Shown one piece after another: positions 1 to 22,693 of a stretch of DNA of 40,294 bases (positions are counted from its first letter, which is position 1; each line of letters begins with the position of its first letter). This stretch comes from Rhodanobacteraceae bacterium (GTDB lineage: Bacteria > Pseudomonadota > Gammaproteobacteria > Xanthomonadales > Rhodanobacteraceae). The notes under the pieces were generated by a model. That model did not search any database. It was not told where the DNA came from and worked only from the letters and a program-made list of their open reading frames with translations. Where the stretch lies: contig DASVDY010000093.1 in NCBI GenBank assembly GCA_036380855.1, forward strand, positions 1-40,294, read 5' to 3'. Position numbers and translations under genes: made by a program.

Positions 1-364
1 TCTCGTCCACGATCACGCGCATCTTTTCCAGCTGCGCGGCATTGTCGGCCTGCAGCGATTTCAGTTGCGCATCCAGCGTGGCACGCACCTCGTTCAGGCG
101 CTTTTCGTTGTCGGCGGTCAGGCCCGAGAGCGTCTGCCGCAATTGTTCGGCCAGCCGCGCCAGCGACTCGGCCAGTTCGCCGCGGCCGGCGCGCTGCTCC
201 TCGCGCAACACGCGTTCGATGCGCTCGCTGTCGCCGCGCAGTGCATCGAGCCTGGCGGCGAGCGCGGAATCCTCCGGTTGCCGCGTGCGTTTCAGCAGCG
301 CGACCAGCAGCCCGCAGGCGGCGAGCAGCGCGATCAGTACCAGGACGAGCAGGACGGTGTTCAC
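1..364 (-). CDS. rmuC: DNA recombination protein RmuC, N-terminal part (3' end lies beyond window start)
   Basis: Not in the ORF track because it runs off the edge. My reverse-strand translation from GTG at 364 gives VNTVLLVLVLIALLAACGLLVALLKRTRQPEDSALAARLDALRGDSERIERVLREEQRAGRGELAESLARLAEQLRQTLSGLTADNEKRLNEVRATLDAQLKSLQADNAAQLEKMRVIVDE. That is one N-terminal TM helix followed by a coiled coil, as in RmuC. An in-frame TGA lies a few codons upstream of the GTG. Confidence 0.6.
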   Translation of the reverse strand, partial: MNTVLLVLVLIALLAACGLLVALLKRTRQPEDSALAARLDALRGDSERIERVLREEQRAGRGELAESLARLAEQLRQTLSGLTADNEKRLNEVRATLDAQLKSLQADNAAQLEKMRVIVDE

Positions 365-425
365 GGCGGCAACGATGACGAGAGATGCGCGAAGTGTACG
401 CGCCCCGGGTCTCAGGAGCTGAGCG

Positions 426-1373
426 TCATTCCAGGTGATCGGCAGCTTCGTGCAGGTCCGCGACGTGCTGCTCCCACCAGCGCGCTTCCGCGGCAAACGG
501 GAACGCGGCGGGAAACGCCGGATCGTGCCAGCGCTCGGCGACCCAGCCGGCCCAGTGCACCTGGCGCATGGCGCGCAGCGCCGGGACCAGCGCGCGCTCA
601 CGCGGATCGAAGTCGCGGAATTGCGCGTAGCCTTCCAGCAGCGTGTCGAGGGCATCGTCGTCGCTTGCGAGCATCCACAGGTCCTGCACCGCCGGGCCCA
701 TGCGCGCGTCGTCCAGGTCCACGAAATGCGGGCCGGCATCGGTCCACAACAGGTTGCCGGGATGGCAATCGCCGTGCAGCCGGATTTGCGCGACCCGGCC
801 CACGGCTTCGCAGCGGCTGGCCACCGCCGCATCCACCCGCCGGATCGCCCGTGCGTAGTTTTCATGCAGGCGCGCGGGCAGCAGCGACGACGCCTGCACC
901 GCGCGCGACGGCGCCCCGATGAAGGTCGCGCGATCGAGCGTGCCGCGATGCCGGAACGGCGTCCGCGCGCCGACCGCGTGCATGCGCGCCAGCAGGCGTC
1001 CGATCCATTCCAGGTGCTCGCGCGACTCCATTTCGCCGGCGCGTCCACCGCGGCGCGGATAGATCGAGTAGCGGAAACCGGCGTGGCGCAGCAGCGTTTC
1101 ACCATCGAACGCCAGCGGCGCGATCACCGGCAATTCGGCGTCGGCCAGCTCGCGCGCGAAGGCGTGCTCTTCCGCGATCGCTTCGTCGCTCCAGCGCTGC
1201 GGCCGGTAGAACTTGGCCACCACGAAGCCGCCGTCTTCCAGCCCGATCTGGTAGACGCGGTTCTCGTAACTGTTCAGCGCAAGCAGCCGGCCGTCGGGAT
1301 CGAGGCCCGCCGCGGCGATGGCATCGAGCGCGGTGTCGGGCGTGAGTTCCGAGTAAGGGGCTTGTGCGTTCAC
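426..1373 (-). CDS. srkA: Stress-response serine/threonine kinase SrkA (YihE/RdoA family)
   Basis: 315-aa ORF. It has the phosphotransferase-fold catalytic loop HGDCHPGNLLW and the metal-binding FVDLDD motif. The N-terminal LALNSYENRVYQ and FVVAKFYRPQRW segments are typical of YihE/SrkA. Confidence 0.85.
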   Translation of the reverse strand: MNAQAPYSELTPDTALDAIAAAGLDPDGRLLALNSYENRVYQIGLEDGGFVVAKFYRPQRWSDEAIAEEHAFARELADAELPVIAPLAFDGETLLRHAGFRYSIYPRRGGRAGEMESREHLEWIGRLLARMHAVGARTPFRHRGTLDRATFIGAPSRAVQASSLLPARLHENYARAIRRVDAAVASRCEAVGRVAQIRLHGDCHPGNLLWTDAGPHFVDLDDARMGPAVQDLWMLASDDDALDTLLEGYAQFRDFDPRERALVPALRAMRQVHWAGWVAERWHDPAFPAAFPFAAEARWWEQHVADLHEAADHLE

Positions 1374-1398: not shown

Positions 1399-1610
1399 TC
1401 AGGTGGCGACGTTGCGCGTATTCACCGCCCGCTGCGGCACCACCGCCATGGTCAGGCGCGAGATGCAGGTGAGCTCGCCCGCCTCGTTCTCGATGCGGAT
1501 TTCCCACACCTGGGTGCTGCGGCCCACGTGCAGCGGCCGCGCGGTGCCGGTGACCACGCCCTCGCGCACCGCGCGCAAATGGTTGGCGTTGATCTCGAGC
1601 CCGACCGTGG
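1399..1610 (-). pseudogene. Displaced 3' fragment of the PaaI-type thioesterase gene (duplicate of 3062-3241)
   Basis: The C-terminal 60+ residues of track ORF 1399..1773 (VGLEINANHLRAVREGVVTGTARPLHVGRSTQVWEIRIENEAGELTCISRLTMAVVPQR) are identical to the C-terminal region of the intact gene at 3033..3479. The upstream part of that ORF (MSQSNCSKPKVKPHC...) is read-through into low-GC insert DNA and shows no thioesterase similarity. Confidence 0.8.
1410..1610. repeat. Direct repeat, copy 1 (core 1431-1610)
   Basis: 1431-1610 aligns base-for-base with 3062-3241 (offset 1631) with 3 mismatches, at 1480/3111, 1525/3156 and 1555/3186. A further homologous block cgttgcgNgtattcac occurs at 1410-1425 and 3001-3016, separated from the core by a ~40-bp indel in copy 2. 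Confidence 0.9.
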
Positions 1611-1715
1611 GGACAGCAACACTGACGGAGGACTCGCGAATTGAGCGTGCGTCGAGCTCGGGGGCCGAGCGCCCGTTGTAAGAATTTGCCGACAAGAAGT
1701 TAGGAAAAACTCCCG

Positions 1716-1744
1716 TTGACGACCCCTGGCAGTGAGGCTTTACT
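1716..1744 (+). promoter_or_regulatory. Candidate sigma70-type promoter for the islet genes
   Basis: TTGACG (1716-1721), a 17-nt spacer, then TTTACT (1739-1744). It is followed by an 8-bp inverted repeat GAGCAATT (1754-1761) / AATTGCTC (1783-1790) that could be an operator. Identified by pattern match only. Confidence 0.25.
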
Positions 1745-1810
1745 TTCGGCTTGGAGCAATTGCTTTGCGACAAGAGCTACTGAATTGCTCTCACGTCAAT
1801 TCACCTTCAT

Positions 1811-2767
1811 GTGATAAAAAGGGGTATTCCAATCAGAAAGGGAATTGCTTTTGCCCTAGGCGCGGTAATCTTCTCTGCCGCTCAGGCACAGATTGTCGCA
1901 AAAGATTGTACGGGGTGTTCTACGTCGGAAATCGAAGCGTTGGCTCCCAACTGCTCGAGTGGATACTCCTACATCACGAATTTCACATCCCAAAACATGT
2001 ACAAGGTCTGCTTCATGTGGGATGTCAACGACGCATATCGCCCCCCTCGAAGAGAGAAAGATTATTCTTGGGCAAGCCCGGAATCACGGTATAAGCTCGA
2101 ATTCCAAGCTTATGAGAACGTCTACCTTTACAACGGTCATTTTGAAGGCTTGGCGATGTACGTGCACGTTCAGACACCTGCAGCTGTGAGAGCGTCGACT
2201 TCATTTGCCAGCTACGGAAGCTTGACGTCTGCTGATAATGGATATGTGAACGCCTTCGATACTGTAACTTCGGTCACAGACAACAATCGGGTGGTGGCGT
2301 ACCTGATGAGTACTAACTTCAACGCAGAAGACATCAAGAACTGGAACCCTCCATTCGGCCCCGCATTAGTTGCAGCAATCGCCCAATTGGAAAATGCGAT
2401 TAAGTCAAACGATATTAGCTTCCAAAACTTCAACGCGACATACATCGTTGAGTTCCCGGACGGAAGCCAGCGAACATACAGGTACGACCCTACAGGCCAT
2501 ATCTTCGTCGCTGTTCCCGGGACAGCCTATGACGCGCACGGTAACAAGATTCCCGAGAATGCGAACATGGCAACCAACGGCGGCGGGACGGCGAATTACG
2601 ACTACACCGGAGGCGGCCCTGGGTACGACCAGCCAAACATGGAGACTGTCCTGCGAAATCTCGGGGCCCAAGGCATTCCGGTTGTCAGTGGCGGTGGTGG
2701 TGATCAGATCGAGTGTTCTTGGAACGACAGCACAAACACCCTATCGTGCACGATCAAGCAATTCTGA
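1811..2767 (+). CDS. Secreted Cys/Gly-rich protein of unrecognised family (318 aa)
   Basis: The N-terminus MIKRGIPIRKGIAFALGAVIFSAAQAQ/IV has the form of a Sec signal peptide: basic n-region, hydrophobic core and an AQA cleavage motif. The mature part has six Cys (CTGC, NC, VC near the N-terminus; ECSWNDSTNTLSC at the C-terminus) and Gly-rich tracts (NGGGTANYDYTGGGPGY, VSGGGGD). The GTG start has no obvious SD. I recognise no family. Confidence 0.7.
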   Translation: MIKRGIPIRKGIAFALGAVIFSAAQAQIVAKDCTGCSTSEIEALAPNCSSGYSYITNFTSQNMYKVCFMWDVNDAYRPPRREKDYSWASPESRYKLEFQAYENVYLYNGHFEGLAMYVHVQTPAAVRASTSFASYGSLTSADNGYVNAFDTVTSVTDNNRVVAYLMSTNFNAEDIKNWNPPFGPALVAAIAQLENAIKSNDISFQNFNATYIVEFPDGSQRTYRYDPTGHIFVAVPGTAYDAHGNKIPENANMATNGGGTANYDYTGGGPGYDQPNMETVLRNLGAQGIPVVSGGGGDQIECSWNDSTNTLSCTIKQF

Positions 2768-2794
2768 TGCATTCGACCAGGAGCAACTACAACC

Positions 2795-3028
2795 ATGAGC
2801 TACGCCGCGTTGGGAATCTTGCTGGCGATAATTGCCCTGTATACGCACTCTGTCCCGGCCAGATTAGCTTTGGGTGCTTTTGTGTTGTTGCTATCTGGAT
2901 TGTTTCTTTACCAGCGTAAGCGAGCTGAAAAGGATGCTCGATCTAGAATCGCACTCGCATTGAGTTGCGCGTCAGCCGTGCTCGGAATGTGGGATCTCGT
3001 CGTTGCGGGTATTCACATGGCCGGATAG
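2795..3028 (+). CDS. Small multi-pass membrane protein (77 aa), partner of the secreted protein
   Basis: AGGAG lies 11 nt upstream of the ATG. There are two to three hydrophobic helices (AALGILLAIIALYT, LALGAFVLLLSGLFLY, IALALSCASAVLGMWDLVVAGI) with a basic loop QRKRAEKDARSR. The last ~9 codons lie inside the direct-repeat homology (3001-3016), so the native C-terminus may have been altered. Confidence 0.5.
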   Translation: MSYAALGILLAIIALYTHSVPARLALGAFVLLLSGLFLYQRKRAEKDARSRIALALSCASAVLGMWDLVVAGIHMAG

Positions 3029-3241
3029 CACTTCAAGAGGCGTTGTGGCGGTGGTGCCCGCGCTGCGGCACCACCGCCATGGTCAGGCGCGAGATGCAGG
3101 TGAGCTCGCCGGCCTCGTTCTCGATGCGGATTTCCCACACCTGGGTGCTGCGGCCGACGTGCAGCGGCCGCGCGGTGCCGGTGACGACGCCCTCGCGCAC
3201 CGCGCGCAAATGGTTGGCGTTGATCTCGAGCCCGACCGTGG
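3001..3241. repeat. Direct repeat, copy 2 (core 3062-3241)
   Basis: See copy 1. This copy forms the 3' end of the intact thioesterase gene. Confidence 0.9.
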
Positions 3242-3479
3242 CCATGCCTTCTTCGCAGCAAAGCATCGCCGCGGTGCTCCCCAGCGTTTCCGCCAGCGCG
3301 ACCGACGCGCCGCCGTGCAGGATGCCGTAGGGCTGGCGGGTGCGCGAGTCCACCGGCATCGTGCCGCGCAGGAAGTCGTCGCCGATCGCGGTGATGCGGA
3401 TGTCTATCGTGCGCATCAGCGTGTTCTCGCTCCAGCGATTGATGGTGGCGAGGTCGACTTCCTGCTTCCAGATTGACAT
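3033..3479 (-). CDS. PaaI/YbdB-type hotdog-fold acyl-CoA thioesterase
   Basis: The GILHGGASVALAETLGS motif and overall layout match the PaaI thioesterase family. The start is placed at ATG 3479 (MSIWKQEVDLATIN...), giving 148 aa, rather than at the upstream start in the track. Confidence 0.85.
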   Translation of the reverse strand: MSIWKQEVDLATINRWSENTLMRTIDIRITAIGDDFLRGTMPVDSRTRQPYGILHGGASVALAETLGSTAAMLCCEEGMATVGLEINANHLRAVREGVVTGTARPLHVGRSTQVWEIRIENEAGELTCISRLTMAVVPQRGHHRHNAS

Positions 3480-12522: not shown

Positions 12523-13311
12523 TCAGTTGCTCGCGGCGGGAGCGGGCGTGCCGCGCTCGCGGCGGATCATTTCGCCGGCAAGGCCCAGGTAAGCGATCGC
12601 ACCGCGCGACTCGCGGTCGTAAAGGTTGATCGGCTTGCCATGGCTGGGCGCTTCGGCCAGGCGCACGTTGCGCGGGATGATCGAGCGCAGCACCTTGTCG
12701 CCGAAATGCTTCGTGAGCTGCGCGGAGACATCGTTGCCGAGGTTGTTGCGCACGTCGAACATGGTGCGCAGCAGGCCCTCCACTTCCAGTCGCGGATTGA
12801 GCCGCGCGCGCACGGCCTTCACCGTGTCGAGCAGCGAGGTCAGGCCCTCCAGCGCGAAGTATTCGCACTGCACCGGGATCAGCACGCTGTGCGCGGCGGC
12901 CAGCGCGTTCAAGGTCAGCAGGTGCAGCGACGGCGGGCAGTCAATCAGGATGGTGTGGTAGCGGTCGCCCAGCTTGGCGAGCTGTTCCTTCAGGCGCGAC
13001 TCGCGTGCGATCGCGTCCATCAGCTTCAGTTCCGCGGCGGTGAGATCGCGCCCGCCCGGCAGCAGGTCGTAGCCGGCCTCGGTGGGCACGATCGCCGATT
13101 CGATGCTCGCCTCCTCCAGCAGCACCTCGCAGCCGGTGGGGTGCACGTCGCGCTTGTCTATGCCCGAGGCCATCGTGGCATTGCCCTGCGGATCCAGGTC
13201 CACCAGCAGGATCTTGCGCTTGGTTTCGGAAAGCGCGGCGGCGAGATTCACCGCGGTGGTGGTCTTGCCGACCCCGCCTTTCTGGTTGGCGATGGCGATG
13301 ATGCGCGTCAT
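12523..13311 (-). CDS. parA: Chromosome partitioning ATPase ParA (Soj)
   Basis: The start is placed at ATG 13311 (MTRIIAIANQKGGVGKTTTAVNLA), which contains the deviant Walker A motif KGGVGKTT. Confidence 0.9.
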   Translation of the reverse strand: MTRIIAIANQKGGVGKTTTAVNLAAALSETKRKILLVDLDPQGNATMASGIDKRDVHPTGCEVLLEEASIESAIVPTEAGYDLLPGGRDLTAAELKLMDAIARESRLKEQLAKLGDRYHTILIDCPPSLHLLTLNALAAAHSVLIPVQCEYFALEGLTSLLDTVKAVRARLNPRLEVEGLLRTMFDVRNNLGNDVSAQLTKHFGDKVLRSIIPRNVRLAEAPSHGKPINLYDRESRGAIAYLGLAGEMIRRERGTPAPAASN

Positions 13312-13375
13312 GGGATGCAACGGTTCCCCTGAACCTCTGGACAGCGGAACGCGGAGATTAGCATCGCACCGCGAT

Positions 13376-14008
13376 TCACGCCCGGCGGATTTCCACAAGA
13401 TGCCGCTGCGCATCCAGCCCGGGGACGTCCAGCGCGTGGACGGCTTCCACTTTGAAACCGGCCGGCACCTGCGCCAGCTCGGCGGATTCGATCTGGCCCT
13501 TCATCGCCAGCCACACGCCCTCCGGCGCCAGCGCGTGCCCACCCCGGGCCAGCATGTCGGCGAGGCTGGCGAAGGCGCGCGCGGTGATGCAGTCGAACCG
13601 GCCTTGCAGATCCTCGACCCGCACCTGCTCCACCTTCACGTTCGGCAGCGGCAGCGCGCGTGCGGCCTCGCGCAGGAAACGCGCCTTCTTGCCGTTGCTG
13701 TCCACCAGCGTCACTTTCAGCCCGGGCCGGGCGATCGCGAGCGGAATCCCCGGCAGGCCGGCGCCGCTGCCGAGGTCGGCCAGGGTCTGGCCCCGCACGA
13801 ACGGCAGCACGGCCAGCGAGTCCAGCAGATGGCGCGTCACCATCTCGGCCGGGTCGCGCACCGCGGTGAGGTTGTAGGCCTTGTTCCAGCGGACCAGCAG
13901 GTCGAGGTAGTCGAGCAGGCTTGCGCGCGCGCCGGCTGGCAGTTCCAGCCGCAGCGCATGAAGACCGCGCTCGAGCTGCTCGCGCAAGGATTCGTGGGAA
14001 TCGGTCAA
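13376..14008 (-). CDS. rsmG: 16S rRNA (guanine527-N7)-methyltransferase RsmG (GidB)
   Basis: SAM motif DLGSGAGLPGIPLAI is present, and the gene order is rsmG-parA-parB. Confidence 0.9.
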   Translation of the reverse strand: MTDSHESLREQLERGLHALRLELPAGARASLLDYLDLLVRWNKAYNLTAVRDPAEMVTRHLLDSLAVLPFVRGQTLADLGSGAGLPGIPLAIARPGLKVTLVDSNGKKARFLREAARALPLPNVKVEQVRVEDLQGRFDCITARAFASLADMLARGGHALAPEGVWLAMKGQIESAELAQVPAGFKVEAVHALDVPGLDAQRHLVEIRRA

Positions 14009-14014
14009 GGCTAC

Positions 14015-14051
14015 GGCCCCAAAAAACGAAAGCCCGCAATCGGCGGGCTTT
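14015..14051 (-). terminator. Rho-independent terminator downstream of the SPFH gene
   Basis: On the - strand, GAAAGCCCGC-CGAT-(T)GCGGGCTTTC (14027-14051) is followed by a U-run (complement of AAAAAA at 14021-14025 and adjacent bases). Confidence 0.8.
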
Positions 14052-17169: not shown

Positions 17170-18999
17170 GTGCAAGATCACGCCTTCCTGCAATCGGCCG
17201 TCGTCTTCCTGCTTGCAGTGGTGATTGCCGTGCCGCTGGCGCGGCGGCTGAAACTCGGATCGGTGCTCGGGTACCTGGCGGCCGGCGTGGCGATCGGTCC
17301 GTTCGGACTGCAATGGGTGCGCAACCCGGGCGCGATCGCCGGCATCTCCGAGCTGGGCGTGGCATTGCTGCTGTTCGTGATCGGACTCGAGCTCTCGCCG
17401 CAGCGGTTGTGGGTGATGCGCCGTTCGGTATTCGGCGCCGGCGCCGCGCAGGTGGTCGCCTGTGCCGCGGCCCTGGGCGCGATCGCCCACTTCGGTTTCG
17501 GCATGGGCCGGGCCAGCGCCAGCGTGATCGGGCTCGGGCTCGCGCTGTCCTCGACCGCCTTCGGATTGCAGACGCTGGCCGAACGCAAGGAGCTGCCGAG
17601 CGCGCATGGCCGGCTCGCGTTCGCCGTCCTGCTGTTCCAGGATCTGGCCGCGATCCCGCTGATCGCCGCCATTCCGTTGCTGGGCGTGCAGGTCGCCACC
17701 CATGCCGGGCAGCCGTGGTGGCTGGGCGCGTTGCGCGTGATCGGGGTCATCGCGGTGGTGGTGATCGGCGGCCGTTTTGCCTTGCGGCCGCTGTTCCGCG
17801 CGGTGGCGAAGACGCGGCTGGTCGAGGTGTCCACCGCGACGGCATTGCTGGTGGTGATCGGAACCGCGTACCTGATGCAACTTGCCGGCATTTCGATGGC
17901 ACTCGGCACGTTCCTCGCCGGCGTGCTGCTGGCCGATTCCGAGTACCGGCACGAGCTCGAATCACACATCCAGCCGTTCGAAGGATTGCTTCTCGGCCTG
18001 TTCTTCATCGCGGTCGGAATGGGCGTGGACCTGCACCTGCTGGTCGCGCATCCATGGATCGTGTGCGGGCTGGTCGCGCTGCTGCTCGCCTGCAAGGCGC
18101 CACTGCTGGCAGCGATCGCGCGCCTCGCCGGGCTGGATTACCCGGGGTCGGTCCGGATGGCCGTGCTGCTGGCCGGGGGCGGCGAATTCGCCTTCGTCGT
18201 CTTCAAGCTGGCCGCCGAACGCGGCCTGCTCGATGCCGACCAGCACCGCCTGCTGGTGCTGGTCATCACGCTCAGCATGGCCGCGGTGCCGCTGCTGGTG
18301 CTGGCGGGCGCGCGGCTGCCGGCCGCGCAGGGGCCGAAGCGCGAATTCGACGCGATCGAAGGCGATGCGCCGCGCGTGATCATCGCCGGGTTCGGTCGCG
18401 TGGGCCAGATCGTGGCGCGCCTGCTGCGCGCGCACCACATCCGCTTCACCGCGCTGGAATCCTCCGTCGAGCAGGTGGACCTGTCGCGGCGCTTCGGCGG
18501 CACCGAAATCTACTTCGGCGATCCTTCACGCATGGAACTGCTGCGCGCCGCGCAGGCCGACAAGGCCGAAGTATTCGTGCTCGCCACCGACGATCCGGAG
18601 ACCAACGTGCGCACCGCGCGCATCGTGCGGCGCCTGTATCCGCATCTCAAGATCATCGCGCGCGCGCGCAACCGCCAGCATGCATTCCGGCTGATGGACC
18701 TCACCTCGCCCGAGGTGGTGGTGCGCGAGACCTTCCATTCCAGCCTGAAGATGGCGCAACTGACGCTGGAGGCGCTGGGGCTCGCGCCGGAAGCGGCGCG
18801 CTCGCGGGTGGAAACGTTCCGCCGCTACGACGAGCAACTGCTGCGCGACCAGCACCTCGTCTACGACGACGACGCGGCGATGGTGCAGAGTTCGAAGGAA
18901 GCTTACGCGGAGCTGGAGCGGCTGTTCGAGGCCGATATCGCCTCGAATGTCGTCGAGATCACTCCGCCGACGACGCGGGCTGGCGCAGCACGCGACTGA
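17170..18999 (+). CDS. kefB: Glutathione-regulated K+ efflux (K+/H+ antiporter) KefB/KefC family with C-terminal TrkA-N domain
   Basis: The N-terminus VQDHAFLQSAVVFLLAVVIAVPLARRLKLGSVLGYLAAGVAIGP matches Kef N-termini. The Rossmann motif RVIIAGFGRVGQIVARLL is present. The start is placed at GTG 17170 within the longer track ORF. Confidence 0.85.
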   Translation: MQDHAFLQSAVVFLLAVVIAVPLARRLKLGSVLGYLAAGVAIGPFGLQWVRNPGAIAGISELGVALLLFVIGLELSPQRLWVMRRSVFGAGAAQVVACAAALGAIAHFGFGMGRASASVIGLGLALSSTAFGLQTLAERKELPSAHGRLAFAVLLFQDLAAIPLIAAIPLLGVQVATHAGQPWWLGALRVIGVIAVVVIGGRFALRPLFRAVAKTRLVEVSTATALLVVIGTAYLMQLAGISMALGTFLAGVLLADSEYRHELESHIQPFEGLLLGLFFIAVGMGVDLHLLVAHPWIVCGLVALLLACKAPLLAAIARLAGLDYPGSVRMAVLLAGGGEFAFVVFKLAAERGLLDADQHRLLVLVITLSMAAVPLLVLAGARLPAAQGPKREFDAIEGDAPRVIIAGFGRVGQIVARLLRAHHIRFTALESSVEQVDLSRRFGGTEIYFGDPSRMELLRAAQADKAEVFVLATDDPETNVRTARIVRRLYPHLKIIARARNRQHAFRLMDLTSPEVVVRETFHSSLKMAQLTLEALGLAPEAARSRVETFRRYDEQLLRDQHLVYDDDAAMVQSSKEAYAELERLFEADIASNVVEITPPTTRAGAARD

Positions 19000-21900
19000 C
19001 GCCCGGCATCGCCCGCGGCGCGAGTTCCATCGCGAGGTCCACCAGGCCGAGCAGGCGCGCGACGTCAGAAGGCGTGCGCCCGAAGCCGTCGGTGCCTTCG
19101 CGGTTGGCGCCGCGAGCGAGCAGCGCGCGCGCCGGCGCGAACAGCGCGTGCATTGCGCAGGCGTGCAAGGCACCGACACCGCGCGCATCGGCGCGGTCCG
19201 GGTTGGCGCCGGCGTCCAGCAGCGCCGGCAGCAGCGCGGCGAGATGGGTGCCGTCGGCTACCGCGTCCGGCTTGGCCTGCGCACCGAGCAGCAACAGCAA
19301 CGGCGTGGCGCCCTGCGCGTCGGCGGCATCCACGCGTGCCGGATCCTTGCCGCAGGTGCGCAGCAGCGCGTCCAGCAGCCGACGGCAGCGCAGGCTGTCG
19401 CGGCTGTCGAAACAGAACCGCGCGGCGGCATGCAGCGCGGTGCGGCCATGCTCGTCGGTGAGCGCAGGATCGGCGCCGCGTTCGAGCAGCGCCTCGACGA
19501 TCTCCGGAAAGCCCAATGCCGCGGCGACCATCAGCGCGGTCGCATTGCCCGGCAGTCGCTGGTCGGCCCTGGCGCCGTGCTCAAGCAGCAGCTTCACCAC
19601 TTCGACGCGGCGGGCGCTGACCGCGGCAGACAGCGGCGTCGCGCCCGATTCGGCGGCCAGCATCGCGTCGGCACGCGCCTGCAGCAGTCGCTGCGCGGCA
19701 TCAACGTGGCCTGCGCCGCAGGCGCGCAGCAGCGCGCTCGCGCCGCGCTCGTCGCGCGTGTTGATCGGGAAGCCCAGCTCCAGCAATTTCGAAACCGCAT
19801 CCGCATCGCCACAGGAGGCAGCCAGTGGCAGGTCGCTTGCGCGCAGCGGGCGCTGCGGCAGCGGCCATGCGCCCCAGCGCAACCAGTGTTCCAGCGTGGC
19901 ATCGCCGCGCGCCAGCGCCAGGCCCAGCGGCGTTTCGCCATTGGCAGCCGGGCACTCCGGATCGGCGCCGTGAGCGACCAGCGCACGCACCAGCGGCAAC
20001 GCCGCCGCGCGATCGGCATTCAGCGCAATGTGCAGGGGCGTGGCGCCGTCGCGATCGCGTACGTTGGGGTCGGCCCCGCGCTCGAGCAGTGCGTCCAGCA
20101 CCGGAGCCAGGGCCGCGCAGGCGGCGTAGTGCAGCGGCGTGCGGTGGCCCGGATCGGCGCCGAAGGCATCCGCGCCGCGCGCGAGCAGGTCCAGCGCGAA
20201 CGGCGCCGCCTGCGGCGCATCCACCAGTTTCGCAAGCGTGCGGGCGTACAGGCCGGCGCCGCTGCAGCTCGCACCGGCCTCGAGCAACTGGCGCAGGGCA
20301 TCCTGCGATTCGGGCAGGCGCTCGATCAGCGCATCGAACAGGCGCACCCCGTCGTCGAGTGTCGGTTCCGCGCCCAGCCCGTGTTCCAGCAACCACTGGC
20401 GTGCGCCCGCGTGCTCGGCTTCCGACAGTTCCAGGTACAACGCGGCAAGTTCCGCGACCGGCCAGGCGCGTGCGCGCTCGGCAAAGCCGGCCACCACCGC
20501 CCAATGCCCGAAGCGCAACGCATCGAGCAGGTGCGCGGGCGTGTCGGCGCCCGGCTCTGGCTGCGCCGCAACGGCGTGCGAAGACGGCAGCGGCTTGCTC
20601 GGGTCGAGCAGCGCGACCAGGTCCCAGCGGCCCGCGTTGGCCGCGTGTTCCAGCGCATTGCGGCCATCGGCACTGCGGGCATGCGGATCGGCGCCGGCGG
20701 CGAGCAGCGCCTGTATGCAGCGTGCGTTGGCGCGTGGCGACTGGCAGGCCAGCAGCAGTGCGTCGCGACCGTGCGCATCGCGCGCGTGCACGTCCGGCTG
20801 GGCGGCGAGCAGCGCTTCCAGCACTTCGCATGCGCCCGCGCGGGCGGCTTCCATCAGCGCGGTCGTGCCGTGGCGGTCGGCGAGGTTCGGGTTTGCGCCC
20901 GCTTCCAGCAGCGTTCGCGCAATGCCGGGGTGGCCTTCCAGCGCCGCACTCATCAGCGCGCTGCGGCCCAGGCTGTCCACCGCGTCCACGCGCGCCTTGT
21001 GCTTGAGCAGGATCTGCACGCCCTGCGGATCGTCGTCGGCCACCGCCGCCGCGGCCAGCAGCGCGGGCTCGCCCTGCGCCGGCTCGCACTTCGCGCCGTG
21101 CTCCAGCAGGAATTTCAGCAGGCTCCAGTTGCCCGCGCCGGCGGCCGAACCGAGCGGCGAGTGACGGTTGCGATTGAGCGCGTCCAGCGGTGCCTGCGCG
21201 TCAATCAGAATCGCCGCGATCGAAGGCTCGGCGGCGAGCGCCGCGTGGTGCAGCGGCGTGTTGCCGTCGCGATCGCACAGCCGCGGATCGGCGCCGTTGG
21301 CGAGCAGGGTCATGACCGCTTCGGCGCGCCCGTGATAGCTGTCCCGCGTGGCGGCGAGCAGCGCGGTGACGTCGGCGTGCGCGCGGTTGACCTGGGCGCC
21401 GCGCGCAATCAATGCGCGCAGCAGTCGGGTGTCGGGCAGCAGCGCCGCGAGCACCAGCGCGCTGCGCTGGTCGCGCGCGCCGGCTGCGGGCAGCGCATCC
21501 GGATCGGCGCCCGCTTCCAGCCATTGCAGCGCGCGGTCCACTTCCCCCGCGCGCGAGCTGTCCAGCAATCCCTGGTTCAACGCGGCCTGCGGAAGCTGCG
21601 ACGGGTTGGCGTGCGATGCGGTGTCCGGATCCGCAGCGGGCGCGAGCGGGGTATCGCCGGATTCGGCTCGCGGCGGTTCCTCGCCGCCACGGGGCCTGTC
21701 GCGACTTCCGCAGAGCAGGATGCGCAGCGTGCGGTTGGCGGCAATCAGCGTGCACAAGGGCAGCAGCACGATCGCGTACAGGAACAGCGCCGCGGTGCGC
21801 AACTCGTCGGGCATCACCGAACCCACGCCGGCCAGCGCGAGCGCGCCGAATGCGAGCGCAAGATAGGCGAGCGCGGCGGGCAGGAAATGGCTGAAAAAAT

Positions 21901-22396
21901 GGTCCTGCTCGCCCGTGAGGTGCGTGGCGAAGGCGACACTGCGGGTCAGCGCGGTGGAAATCCATGAGCGCTCTTCGCCTTGGGGAAAGGCGTCGTCCCA
22001 TACGAACACCAGGCCGAACGCGGGCCACAGTCGCCACAGCAGTGCGAGCGCCGCGACCAGCGCCGCGCACAATGCCAGGGTCGCAACCAGCGAAGGCGCC
22101 TGCGACAACGCCAGCAGCGGCCACGCCACGAGCACGAACACCACCGCGGTGTAGAACGAGAACAGGATCAGGTGCGTCGCGCCGCGCAGCAGGACGGTGC
22201 GCAGGAAGGAGGTCTCCGGGTCGAAGCCGATCGCATGGCACATCGCCGCCATGCACAGGGTATTGGCCAGCAGCAACGGCAGCAGGGCGAGGGTGCGCGC
22301 ACCGAAGGCGGCCAGTGCGACCGCCGCCAGGGCGGGCAGGAAGCAGGGCAGGGAAAGCAGCAGCGGCGGCCGTCGGCGCGGCTTGGAGCTTGGCAT
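18959..22396 (-). CDS. Large membrane-anchored ankyrin-repeat protein (1145 aa)
   Basis: The N-terminal ~230 aa contain about 6 hydrophobic helices. After a Pro/acidic linker come about 19-20 ANK-like repeats in two blocks (e.g. GADPRLCDRDGNTPLHHAA, GANPNLADRHGTTALMEAA, GADPNVRDRDGATPLHIAL, GADPALTDEHGRTALHAAA). Confidence 0.85.
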   Translation of the reverse strand: MPSSKPRRRPPLLLSLPCFLPALAAVALAAFGARTLALLPLLLANTLCMAAMCHAIGFDPETSFLRTVLLRGATHLILFSFYTAVVFVLVAWPLLALSQAPSLVATLALCAALVAALALLWRLWPAFGLVFVWDDAFPQGEERSWISTALTRSVAFATHLTGEQDHFFSHFLPAALAYLALAFGALALAGVGSVMPDELRTAALFLYAIVLLPLCTLIAANRTLRILLCGSRDRPRGGEEPPRAESGDTPLAPAADPDTASHANPSQLPQAALNQGLLDSSRAGEVDRALQWLEAGADPDALPAAGARDQRSALVLAALLPDTRLLRALIARGAQVNRAHADVTALLAATRDSYHGRAEAVMTLLANGADPRLCDRDGNTPLHHAALAAEPSIAAILIDAQAPLDALNRNRHSPLGSAAGAGNWSLLKFLLEHGAKCEPAQGEPALLAAAAVADDDPQGVQILLKHKARVDAVDSLGRSALMSAALEGHPGIARTLLEAGANPNLADRHGTTALMEAARAGACEVLEALLAAQPDVHARDAHGRDALLLACQSPRANARCIQALLAAGADPHARSADGRNALEHAANAGRWDLVALLDPSKPLPSSHAVAAQPEPGADTPAHLLDALRFGHWAVVAGFAERARAWPVAELAALYLELSEAEHAGARQWLLEHGLGAEPTLDDGVRLFDALIERLPESQDALRQLLEAGASCSGAGLYARTLAKLVDAPQAAPFALDLLARGADAFGADPGHRTPLHYAACAALAPVLDALLERGADPNVRDRDGATPLHIALNADRAAALPLVRALVAHGADPECPAANGETPLGLALARGDATLEHWLRWGAWPLPQRPLRASDLPLAASCGDADAVSKLLELGFPINTRDERGASALLRACGAGHVDAAQRLLQARADAMLAAESGATPLSAAVSARRVEVVKLLLEHGARADQRLPGNATALMVAAALGFPEIVEALLERGADPALTDEHGRTALHAAARFCFDSRDSLRCRRLLDALLRTCGKDPARVDAADAQGATPLLLLLGAQAKPDAVADGTHLAALLPALLDAGANPDRADARGVGALHACAMHALFAPARALLARGANREGTDGFGRTPSDVARLLGLVDLAMELAPRAMPGVSRVLRQPASSAE

Positions 22397-22693
22397 TGAA
22401 CGGAAACTCGCAACGGCGGAAGCGCCGCAGTATACGCAAGGCTCACGCGCGCAAACGGTAACGCGGCGTTAATTGCGGCGGCCCGCGGTCGCCCGGAAAT
22501 CGAATGCGCGCCGGCGGGCCCGTTGCGCGATCGGGGGCCCTTGACCGGGGTCAATGCGCCGCGACGGCGCTTTCTTCAGGCTCTTGATTCCTCGTCGCGA
22601 TCCGTTCACAGTGGCGCCCGGGAGTTCAAACAAGCGTATGAATAGCGCCATCCGGCGCCTTCGCGCGCGTCTCAACCTGAGGGAGAACGTTTC

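Follow-up and report, generated by a model that had tools for sequence, protein, structure and literature searches.

A low-GC two-gene islet beside srkA in a Rhodanobacteraceae bacterium, probably added in tandem by general recombination

The 40,294-nt stretch of bacterial DNA considered here (contig DASVDY010000093.1, called the window below and used as the coordinate system throughout) contains an islet of 1.45 kb, which carries two genes and lies between two copies of the 3'-terminal 181 bases of a thioesterase gene, close to srkA. The host belongs to the Rhodanobacteraceae; its SrkA protein is 78% identical to the best match, and an exact look-up of this protein returned no record. The features of the locus are collected in Table 1, and comparison loci and comparison proteins are designated by L-numbers and P-numbers, respectively. 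The assignment of srkA is further supported by the NCBIfam model NF008738 (425.9 bits, for a cut-off of 194). The neighbouring rmuC gene has the translation VNTVLLVLVLIALL...LDALRGDSERIE, which agrees with the N-termini encoded by rmuC in L082 and L002. Its counterpart in L001 is an open reading frame (ORF) of 479 amino acids, labelled RmuC on the strength of motifs recognised in its sequence rather than of a Pfam scan.

Table 1. Features of the islet locus, in window coordinates
Feature	Position	Strand	Remarks
rmuC, 5' part	1..364	-	GTG start at 362-364; gene downstream of srkA
Native rmuC-srkA intergenic spacer, 61 nt	365..425		Motif GTGTACGC...GTCTCAGG conserved across relatives (alignment)
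srkA, stress-response kinase A, YihE type	426..1373	-	Pfam APH, E = 2.1e-38
Orphan thioesterase 3' fragment	1399..1610	-	Native tail 1399-1429 (AVNTRNVAT*) and left repeat
Left direct repeat, 181 nt	1430..1610		Repeat alignment
Putative illegitimate joint	1610..1611		Thioesterase codon interior fused to first base of spacer copy
spacer' (decayed rmuC-srkA spacer copy)	1611..1671		Left end of the insert
Islet leader	1672..1810	+	Promoter-like TTGAC...TTACTTT element (by eye), common to L082
ORF318	1811..2767	+	Secreted protein; signal peptide, conserved Cys pairs
ORF77	2795..3028	+	Small membrane protein, two hydrophobic segments by eye
16-nt patch, ORF77 3' end	3001..3016		15/16 match to native thioesterase tail 1410-1425
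Intact thioesterase	3033..3479	-	Replacement tail GHHRHNAS* (3033-3060); Pfam 4HBT, E = 2.6e-21
Inverted repeat, perfect 13 bp, 8-nt loop	3046..3079		Straddles the right repeat boundary
Right direct repeat, 181 nt	3061..3241		Within the functional thioesterase

The two direct repeats are identical at 178 of their 181 bases (about 98%). The repeats recognised in the initial annotation, made from the sequence of the window (1431-1610 and 3062-3241, 177/180), are real, their true length being one base more. All three mismatches (1480/3111, 1525/3156 and 1555/3186) fall on the third position of thioesterase codons and are synonymous, and at each of them the derived base belongs to the orphan copy, the right copy being concordant with L103 and L082. 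Gene calls agree with the earlier description in that the right copy completes the intact thioesterase gene (C-terminus ...VVPQRGHHRHNAS) and the left one forms part of an orphan fragment (C-terminus ...VVPQRAVNTRNVAT), separated by 25 nt from the start of srkA. The extra homology noticed beyond an indel, between 1410-1425 and 3001-3016, also holds (15/16 bases, reached by none of 3000 shuffles), and the indel, 40-44 nt in the right copy, is located between this patch and the repeat. The patch occurs in the final codons of ORF77, where the window thus resembles the antisense of the native thioesterase tail. L082, L084 and L104 are concordant with each other at the 3' codons of ORF77 and only about half identical to the window there, and the patch looks like a window-specific conversion tract across the 40-nt indel. 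The GC content of the DNA between the repeats (1611-3060) amounts to 51.9%, against 67.8% in the remaining window, with values ranging from 0.475 to 0.61 in 200-nt windows within the islet, and both islet ORFs are encoded on the + strand; the low GC of this segment had been pointed out before.

The empty site was found in approximately 21 relatives from the Rhodanobacteraceae, in which the genes for a ferredoxin reductase and the thioesterase are followed by srkA without any islet, the last two genes being adjacent or overlapping. The initial annotation had suggested looking for such sites, with the thioesterase directly followed by srkA, and recording which C-terminus they possess: it is the one of the orphan. 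In this respect, AVNTRNVAT represents the native C-terminus of the clade, which the orphan has kept (as in P0020/L103). The best empty-site comparator, L103 (GCA_036377975), displays 87.5% DNA identity over 7 kb, and its alignment with the window stops at exactly 3061 and restarts at exactly 1610. These positions are the breakpoints of the insertion that had been proposed relative to an empty site, and the thioesterase gene of L103 runs uninterrupted across the point equivalent to the 1610-1611 joint. The orphan tail is identical to that of L103 at 28 of 31 bases, the three differences being all synonymous. Because the thioesterase and srkA genes are adjacent or overlapping in the relatives, the islet interrupts what is probably an operon, in line with the co-transcription suggested earlier. 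Two other thioesterase sequences deserve mention as observations in their own right. P0142, from a 12.9-kb ENA contig, is a thioesterase of the same clade with an in-frame fragment of a PurD N-domain (PF02844), of about 65-70 residues, after codon 6, and corresponds either to another rearrangement in the thioesterase gene or to a chimeric assembly. In P0140, from a 1.2-kb JGI contig, a gene call of 71 amino acids begins with MATVG, almost at the start of the 181-nt repeat, and could be another orphan 3' fragment or a mere contig-end effect.

Both ends of the insert are related to the DNA that borders srkA. At the left end, spacer' aligns end to end with the resident spacer (43/59 identical), a score reached by none of 5000 shuffles, and by 4 of 2000 when the two spacers are aligned locally. 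It also aligns with the spacers of L082, L084, L001 and L002, and has lost the motif common to all functional spacers. The right end consists of the thioesterase 3' end with its replacement tail and a hairpin with a 13-bp stem. Since its ends are homologous to both sides of srkA, the insert is, on the evidence of these alignments, best regarded as a copy of the srkA slot with other contents, rather than as an element with ends of its own. The discrete element that the initial annotation had envisaged, be it decayed, trans-mobilised or inserted by an unfamiliar mode, finds no support in the comparisons: its left 61 nt are a homologue of the native spacer, islets related to it are found at this locus with other junctions, and searches for a repeated att-like core, a dif-like site, an integrase and plasmid or phage relatives found none. 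Homology of the insert to native flanking DNA, which the initial annotation had named as a finding that would refute its interpretation, indeed occurs in these 61 nt. The leader that follows spacer' is homologous to the leader of L082 (none of 2000 shuffles reaches the score), and a strict sigma-70 promoter scan of it gave nothing. A resemblance between the islet leader and the long native spacer of L084, suggested by eye, was dropped (36 to 783 of 2000 shuffles reach the score).

The islet has relatives, several of which reside at the same locus. Nineteen homologues of ORF318 (P0001-P0019) were retrieved from a collection of 5.8 billion proteins, the closest ones occurring in the same neighbourhood. 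L082 (79% identical) presents on one contig the succession of rmuC, spacer, islet, hairpin and thioesterase, devoid of srkA and with single-copy flanks, an arrangement named type A, the srkA-replacement allele. The thioesterase tail of L082 is similar to the replacement tail of the window, and that of P0035/L104 is a frame-shifted version of it. L104 (76% identical) shares the islet-hairpin-thioesterase junction of the window. L084 (70% identical) mirrors the window, its duplication being located on the rmuC side: a window-type spacer and the islet are followed by 44 nt from the interior of the thioesterase gene, by 26 codons from the 5' part of a rmuC of the L001 type, by an L001-type spacer and by the 3' end of srkA. 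At the illegitimate joint of L084, 6 nt (CGCACC) are common to the thioesterase match and the rmuC match. In L082 as in L084, a genuine spacer, accompanied by rmuC, precedes the islet at the point equivalent to spacer'. Three different junction sets are thus distributed among the window, L082 and L084 at one locus. Type-A-like DNA thus appears to have been added to a srkA-bearing locus at least twice, the duplication lying on the thioesterase side in the window and on the rmuC side in L084. The contigs of L081, L082, L084 and L104 derive from the samples SRR33674689, SRR31724283, SRR25158533 and ERZ1505409, respectively.

More distant ORF318 homologues (41-58% identical) belong to unrelated loci, and a search for flanking direct repeats at five of these (L083, L089, L090, L093 and L094) found none. 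Similarly, a scan of JGI metagenomes with the ORF318 alignment retrieved only relatives that are 28-50% identical, in other contexts. ORF318/ORF77 cassettes that are 55-58% identical occur at other loci in L085-L087 (left flank) and L095. These cassettes share an upstream hairpin, GCGTGTAGGAAA(A/C)ACCCTACA, and one of them adjoins a gene that looks of the radA type, from a translation made by eye.

The preferred reading, to which a probability of roughly 0.6 is assigned, is that a srkA-replacement allele was added in tandem to the resident allele, by a homologous exchange within the 181-bp segment together with an illegitimate joint between 1610 and 1611. The locus in which rmuC, srkA and the thioesterase gene succeed one another on the same strand would be a polymorphic slot, occupied by srkA in most Rhodanobacteraceae and by the two-gene islet in some. 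The type-A allele, as in L082, would provide a promoter, the two ORFs (ORF318 and ORF77) and a hairpin-terminated tail that replaces the one of the thioesterase. A donor piece extending from the first base of the rmuC-proximal spacer through 181 nt inside the thioesterase gene would have been added, srkA not being exchanged, so that two alleles of the slot follow each other: first the spacer, srkA, the native tail and the 181-nt thioesterase segment, then spacer', islet, hairpin tail and the 181-nt segment continued by the rest of the gene. This would require a RecA-type homologous exchange inside the thioesterase segment and a single illegitimate joint at 1610-1611, no site-specific recombinase being involved. 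Depending on the route, the addition could result from a Campbell-type single crossover of a circularised chromosomal fragment of 1631 bp, for which the joint would represent the closure of the circle, or from ends-in homology-facilitated illegitimate recombination (HFIR) of linear DNA; the two routes cannot be told apart by sequence. DNA uptake is the presumed way of entry in either case, and the order of events is likewise an inference. Both routes have been documented experimentally, HFIR in PMC3240628, and so has a transformation in which both alleles of a target gene are kept in tandem (PMC3784515).

Once formed, the arrangement could spread further by plain double crossover, for which the 181 nt of the orphan would serve as the arm on the left and the body of the thioesterase gene as the arm on the right, and each such transfer would refresh the orphan. 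This would explain why a young-looking orphan stands beside an old-looking spacer'. Taken together, the exclusively synonymous mismatches of the repeats and the protein-intact tail of the orphan indicate that the orphan belonged to a functional gene until recently, whereas spacer' is only 73% like the resident spacer (27% diverged), against 98% between the repeats. Such a contrast speaks against an old duplication in situ and fits an islet that drags spacer' along. An alternative that relies on exactly this kind of duplication is accordingly considered improbable: the unit formed by the spacer, srkA, the tail and the 181-nt thioesterase segment would have been doubled locally long ago, one srkA being later replaced by the islet and gene conversion homogenising the 181-nt copies. 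The fusion of thioesterase position 1610 to the equivalent of spacer position 365 is precisely the product expected from it, and the conversion-like 15/16 patch at 3001-3016 would also be in keeping with it. However, the native tail of the orphan and the 25-nt gap are not convertible from the right copy and yet show no excess decay, the tail retaining 28/31 identity to L103 with synonymous differences next to so diverged a spacer'. In addition, three repeat differences that all fall on synonymous third positions are unlike neutral decay, and the replacement of the second srkA copy would necessitate homology to the left of spacer', which the type-A donor does not offer.

An artefact of assembly, in which a srkA strain and an islet strain that co-exist were stitched in tandem, is very unlikely because no sequence is shared at 1610-1611 that would let a graph or overlap assembler cross the joint. 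It would account for repeat copies that differ like two alleles, and for a window-type joint that was found in no other data set. A type-A strain would nevertheless have rmuC before spacer', none of which is found there, and L084, which comes from an independent sample, has a comparable additive structure.

Several points have to be set against the tandem addition of a srkA-replacement allele. No independent contig carrying the window-type left joint was found, and a search of the 5.8 billion proteins gave no full-length match to the chimeric orphan ORF. L081, 98.5% identical to 1694-3037, reaches neither junction, and L082, L084 and L104 are single short metagenome contigs. The microhomology at the 1610-1611 joint would be about 2 nt (GG) at most. 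The gap in divergence between spacer' and the repeats calls for an additional assumption, either that spacer' hitch-hiked with the islet or that the orphan was refreshed at each transfer. The route by DNA uptake would call for natural transformation or conjugation in the host. Finally, the perfectly conserved arms of the hairpin hint at a further function.

This hairpin, of 13-8-13 geometry and GC-rich, has an outer arm that is an inverted copy of the MAVVP codons and gives rise to the replacement tail GHHRH. Its arms are identical in the window, in L082 (1580-1613, loop of 8 nt) and in L104 (about 1083-1115, loop of 7 nt). Because this identity persists despite very different adjacent non-coding DNA, the stem is probably under selection. 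In a context of 76 nt, the predicted folding energy ranges from -35 to -39 kcal/mol (z = -2.5 to -3.9). A U tract after the stem is absent from the window and L082 and reads CUUUUU in L104, and a terminator scan made no call. A terminator or an RNA stabiliser is among its candidate functions, and it might plausibly act as a 3' stem-loop where the transcripts of the thioesterase and of ORF77 converge. The idea of a dispersed site, of the repetitive extragenic palindromic (REP) type or used in recombination, was rejected: the hairpin is single-copy in the window, present at 1 of 95 loci (L082) and absent from JGI metagenome contigs. Being single-copy, without a partner at the left junction and with a loop of 7 nt in L104, it was not taken as the core site of a recombinase, and its use as a recombination site by a host enzyme is extremely improbable.

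The same palindrome would be the possible core of a trans-mobilised mini-element, in which a site-specific recombinase of the host or of a helper inserts a 1.63-kb circle carrying the thioesterase 3' end. Such an origin is highly unlikely, in spite of a layout that reproduces the succession of attL, element and attR at a gene's 3' end and leaves that gene restored. The arms and spacer of the palindrome have the geometry of lox/FRT-type sites, and its outer arm is identical in the three islet variants, notwithstanding the very different non-coding DNA nearby, which would suit such a core. However, it occurs once in the window, without a counterpart at the left junction or at the native site, is missing from the JGI metagenome contigs, and has a loop of 8 nt in the window and L082 but of 7 nt in L104. 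Moreover, the insert has spacer DNA of the host at its left end, related islets show other junctions at the same locus, and distant homologues occur elsewhere, without flanking repeats at the five loci scanned. No recombinase is encoded within 40 kb, although a distant enzyme might act in trans.

The initial annotation had remarked on the lack of a recombinase, a transposase or terminal inverted repeats, and the domain and repeat scans agree with it: no recombinase or transposase domain was detected in the islet ORFs or in any likely gene of the 40-kb window, and no terminal inverted repeats of the islet were found. A tRNA scan found none, and an Rfam scan gave no match. No dif-like site (28 bp) flanks the islet, as judged against the dif consensus; the sole palindrome is the GC-rich 13-8-13 hairpin with its single occurrence. 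Elsewhere in the window, a ParA-type ATPase gene and rsmG (gidB) stand side by side at 12526-14050 (-), which suggests that the window is situated near the chromosomal replication origin and not near the terminus, where dif-dependent elements insert. An ORF at 18962-22468 (-) encodes 1169 amino acids made almost entirely of ankyrin repeats (Ank_2, E = 1e-73), which is unusual for a free-living gammaproteobacterium.

With respect to the cargo, ORF318 and ORF77 encode proteins of 318 and 77 amino acids, respectively, and ORF77 comes after ORF318 in all close relatives whose contigs reach that far. The AlphaFold2 model of the ORF318 protein, in which a signal peptide and conserved cysteine pairs are recognised, is confident (pLDDT 81.8, pTM 0.77). 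A Foldseek search of the PDB gave no match to its fold (best E = 0.27, TM about 0.1), and it was assigned to no Pfam or NCBIfam family. The search for relatives of the islet or of ORF318 in plasmids, phages and viruses found none, plasmids and phages having been named for a BLAST-type check in the initial annotation. The family is small, secreted and scattered in the Xanthomonadales, where Xanthomonas albilineans is one of the species that have it. By comparison with L081, L082 and L084, 8 nt (about TGCCATGG) that hold the ATG of ORF318 used there are missing from the window, and the frame is kept open only by an upstream GTG (1811), without a properly spaced Shine-Dalgarno sequence. As the deletion removes the ATG, expression of ORF318 may be weak in the window, or the gene may be in decay. 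That the ORF318 protein acts as a secreted effector with ORF77 as its membrane partner is only a guess. The cargo thus offers a minor lead, a confidently folded secreted protein without structural relative, together with a small membrane partner.

A further proposal goes beyond the tandem addition of the srkA-replacement allele and is rather doubtful: the islet could be a recombinase-free mobile unit of "borrowed homology", equipped with permanent host arms and spreading by homologous recombination of the host after uptake. The thioesterase 3' arm with its hairpin-terminated tail and the relic of the rmuC-srkA spacer would constitute these arms. The repeated addition of the islet beside srkA would then reflect an advantage of the cells that keep srkA.

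The locus is of interest as a sequence-resolved natural case in which a bacterial chromosome seems to have gained foreign genes without the machinery of a mobile element. A single homologous exchange, together with an illegitimate joint, would suffice to leave a long direct repeat that mimics the footprint of an integrase, so that direct repeats and a low-GC insert at the 3' end of a gene should not be accepted as proof of a site-specific element. Owing to its occupation by srkA, by the islet or by both, the polymorphic slot could also be used to compare additive with replacement recombination in soil Xanthomonadales.

Among the known systems, the integrase islands found in tRNA, tmRNA or protein genes resemble the locus by insertion at a gene's 3' end, the restored frame, the replacement C-terminus, the direct repeats, the low GC content and the empty site. 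They differ from it by their integrase and by a far shorter repeat: here no recombinase and no short att core at both junctions were found, the repeat of 181 bp is far longer than an att core, the junctions vary among the sister islets instead of being constant, and the far end of the insert is homologous to DNA located downstream of the next gene. Transposons, insertion sequences and miniature inverted-repeat transposable elements do not correspond to an insert devoid of terminal inverted repeats and transposase, with a duplication of 181 nt. The integrative mobile elements exploiting Xer (IMEX) and the pdif modules are likewise small, recombinase-free and moved by host enzymes, unlike the islet in that flanking dif-like sites are absent here and the only palindrome is GC-rich, single-copy and variable in the length of its loop.

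Campbell insertion-duplication, known from non-replicating plasmids that carry an internal or 3' gene fragment, provides another parallel: the insert lies between direct repeats that represent the shared segment, one copy being complete and functional and the other truncated at the end of the homology, and the process is of the RecA type and requires no dedicated recombinase. Of the Campbell-type integration proposed in the initial annotation, the topology of a single crossover is borne out, but not the site-specific integration of an element. Unlike Campbell plasmids, the islet has no vector or replicon, and the presumed circle would be a 1.63-kb fragment of an alternative allele closed illegitimately.

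The laboratory products of HFIR usually lack recipient DNA beside the anchor. In the window, by contrast, the joint falls within the anchor region (ends-in), so that 181 nt occur twice without any loss. HFIR takes place during natural transformation or conjugation, associates one homologous anchor with an illegitimate other end at little or no microhomology, and brings in foreign DNA, of low GC in the present case (PMC3240628; reportedly also studied by de Vries and Wackernagel in 2002 and by Prudhomme et al. in 2002). In the window, the anchor is present (181 nt, 98%), and the putative illegitimate joint shows at most about 2 nt, against a 6-nt overlap in L084. The transformation-triggered merodiploidy of Streptococcus pneumoniae (PMC3784515) is comparable in that an incoming allele is placed in tandem with the intact resident allele and both are kept, whereas its duplications extend over 100-900 kb and are bordered by repeats derived from insertion sequences, against about 1.2-1.6 kb and a unique illegitimate joint here. 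The structure therefore mimics the footprint of an integrase and is best explained by general recombination, as a new case, found in nature, of a type of event that is already known.

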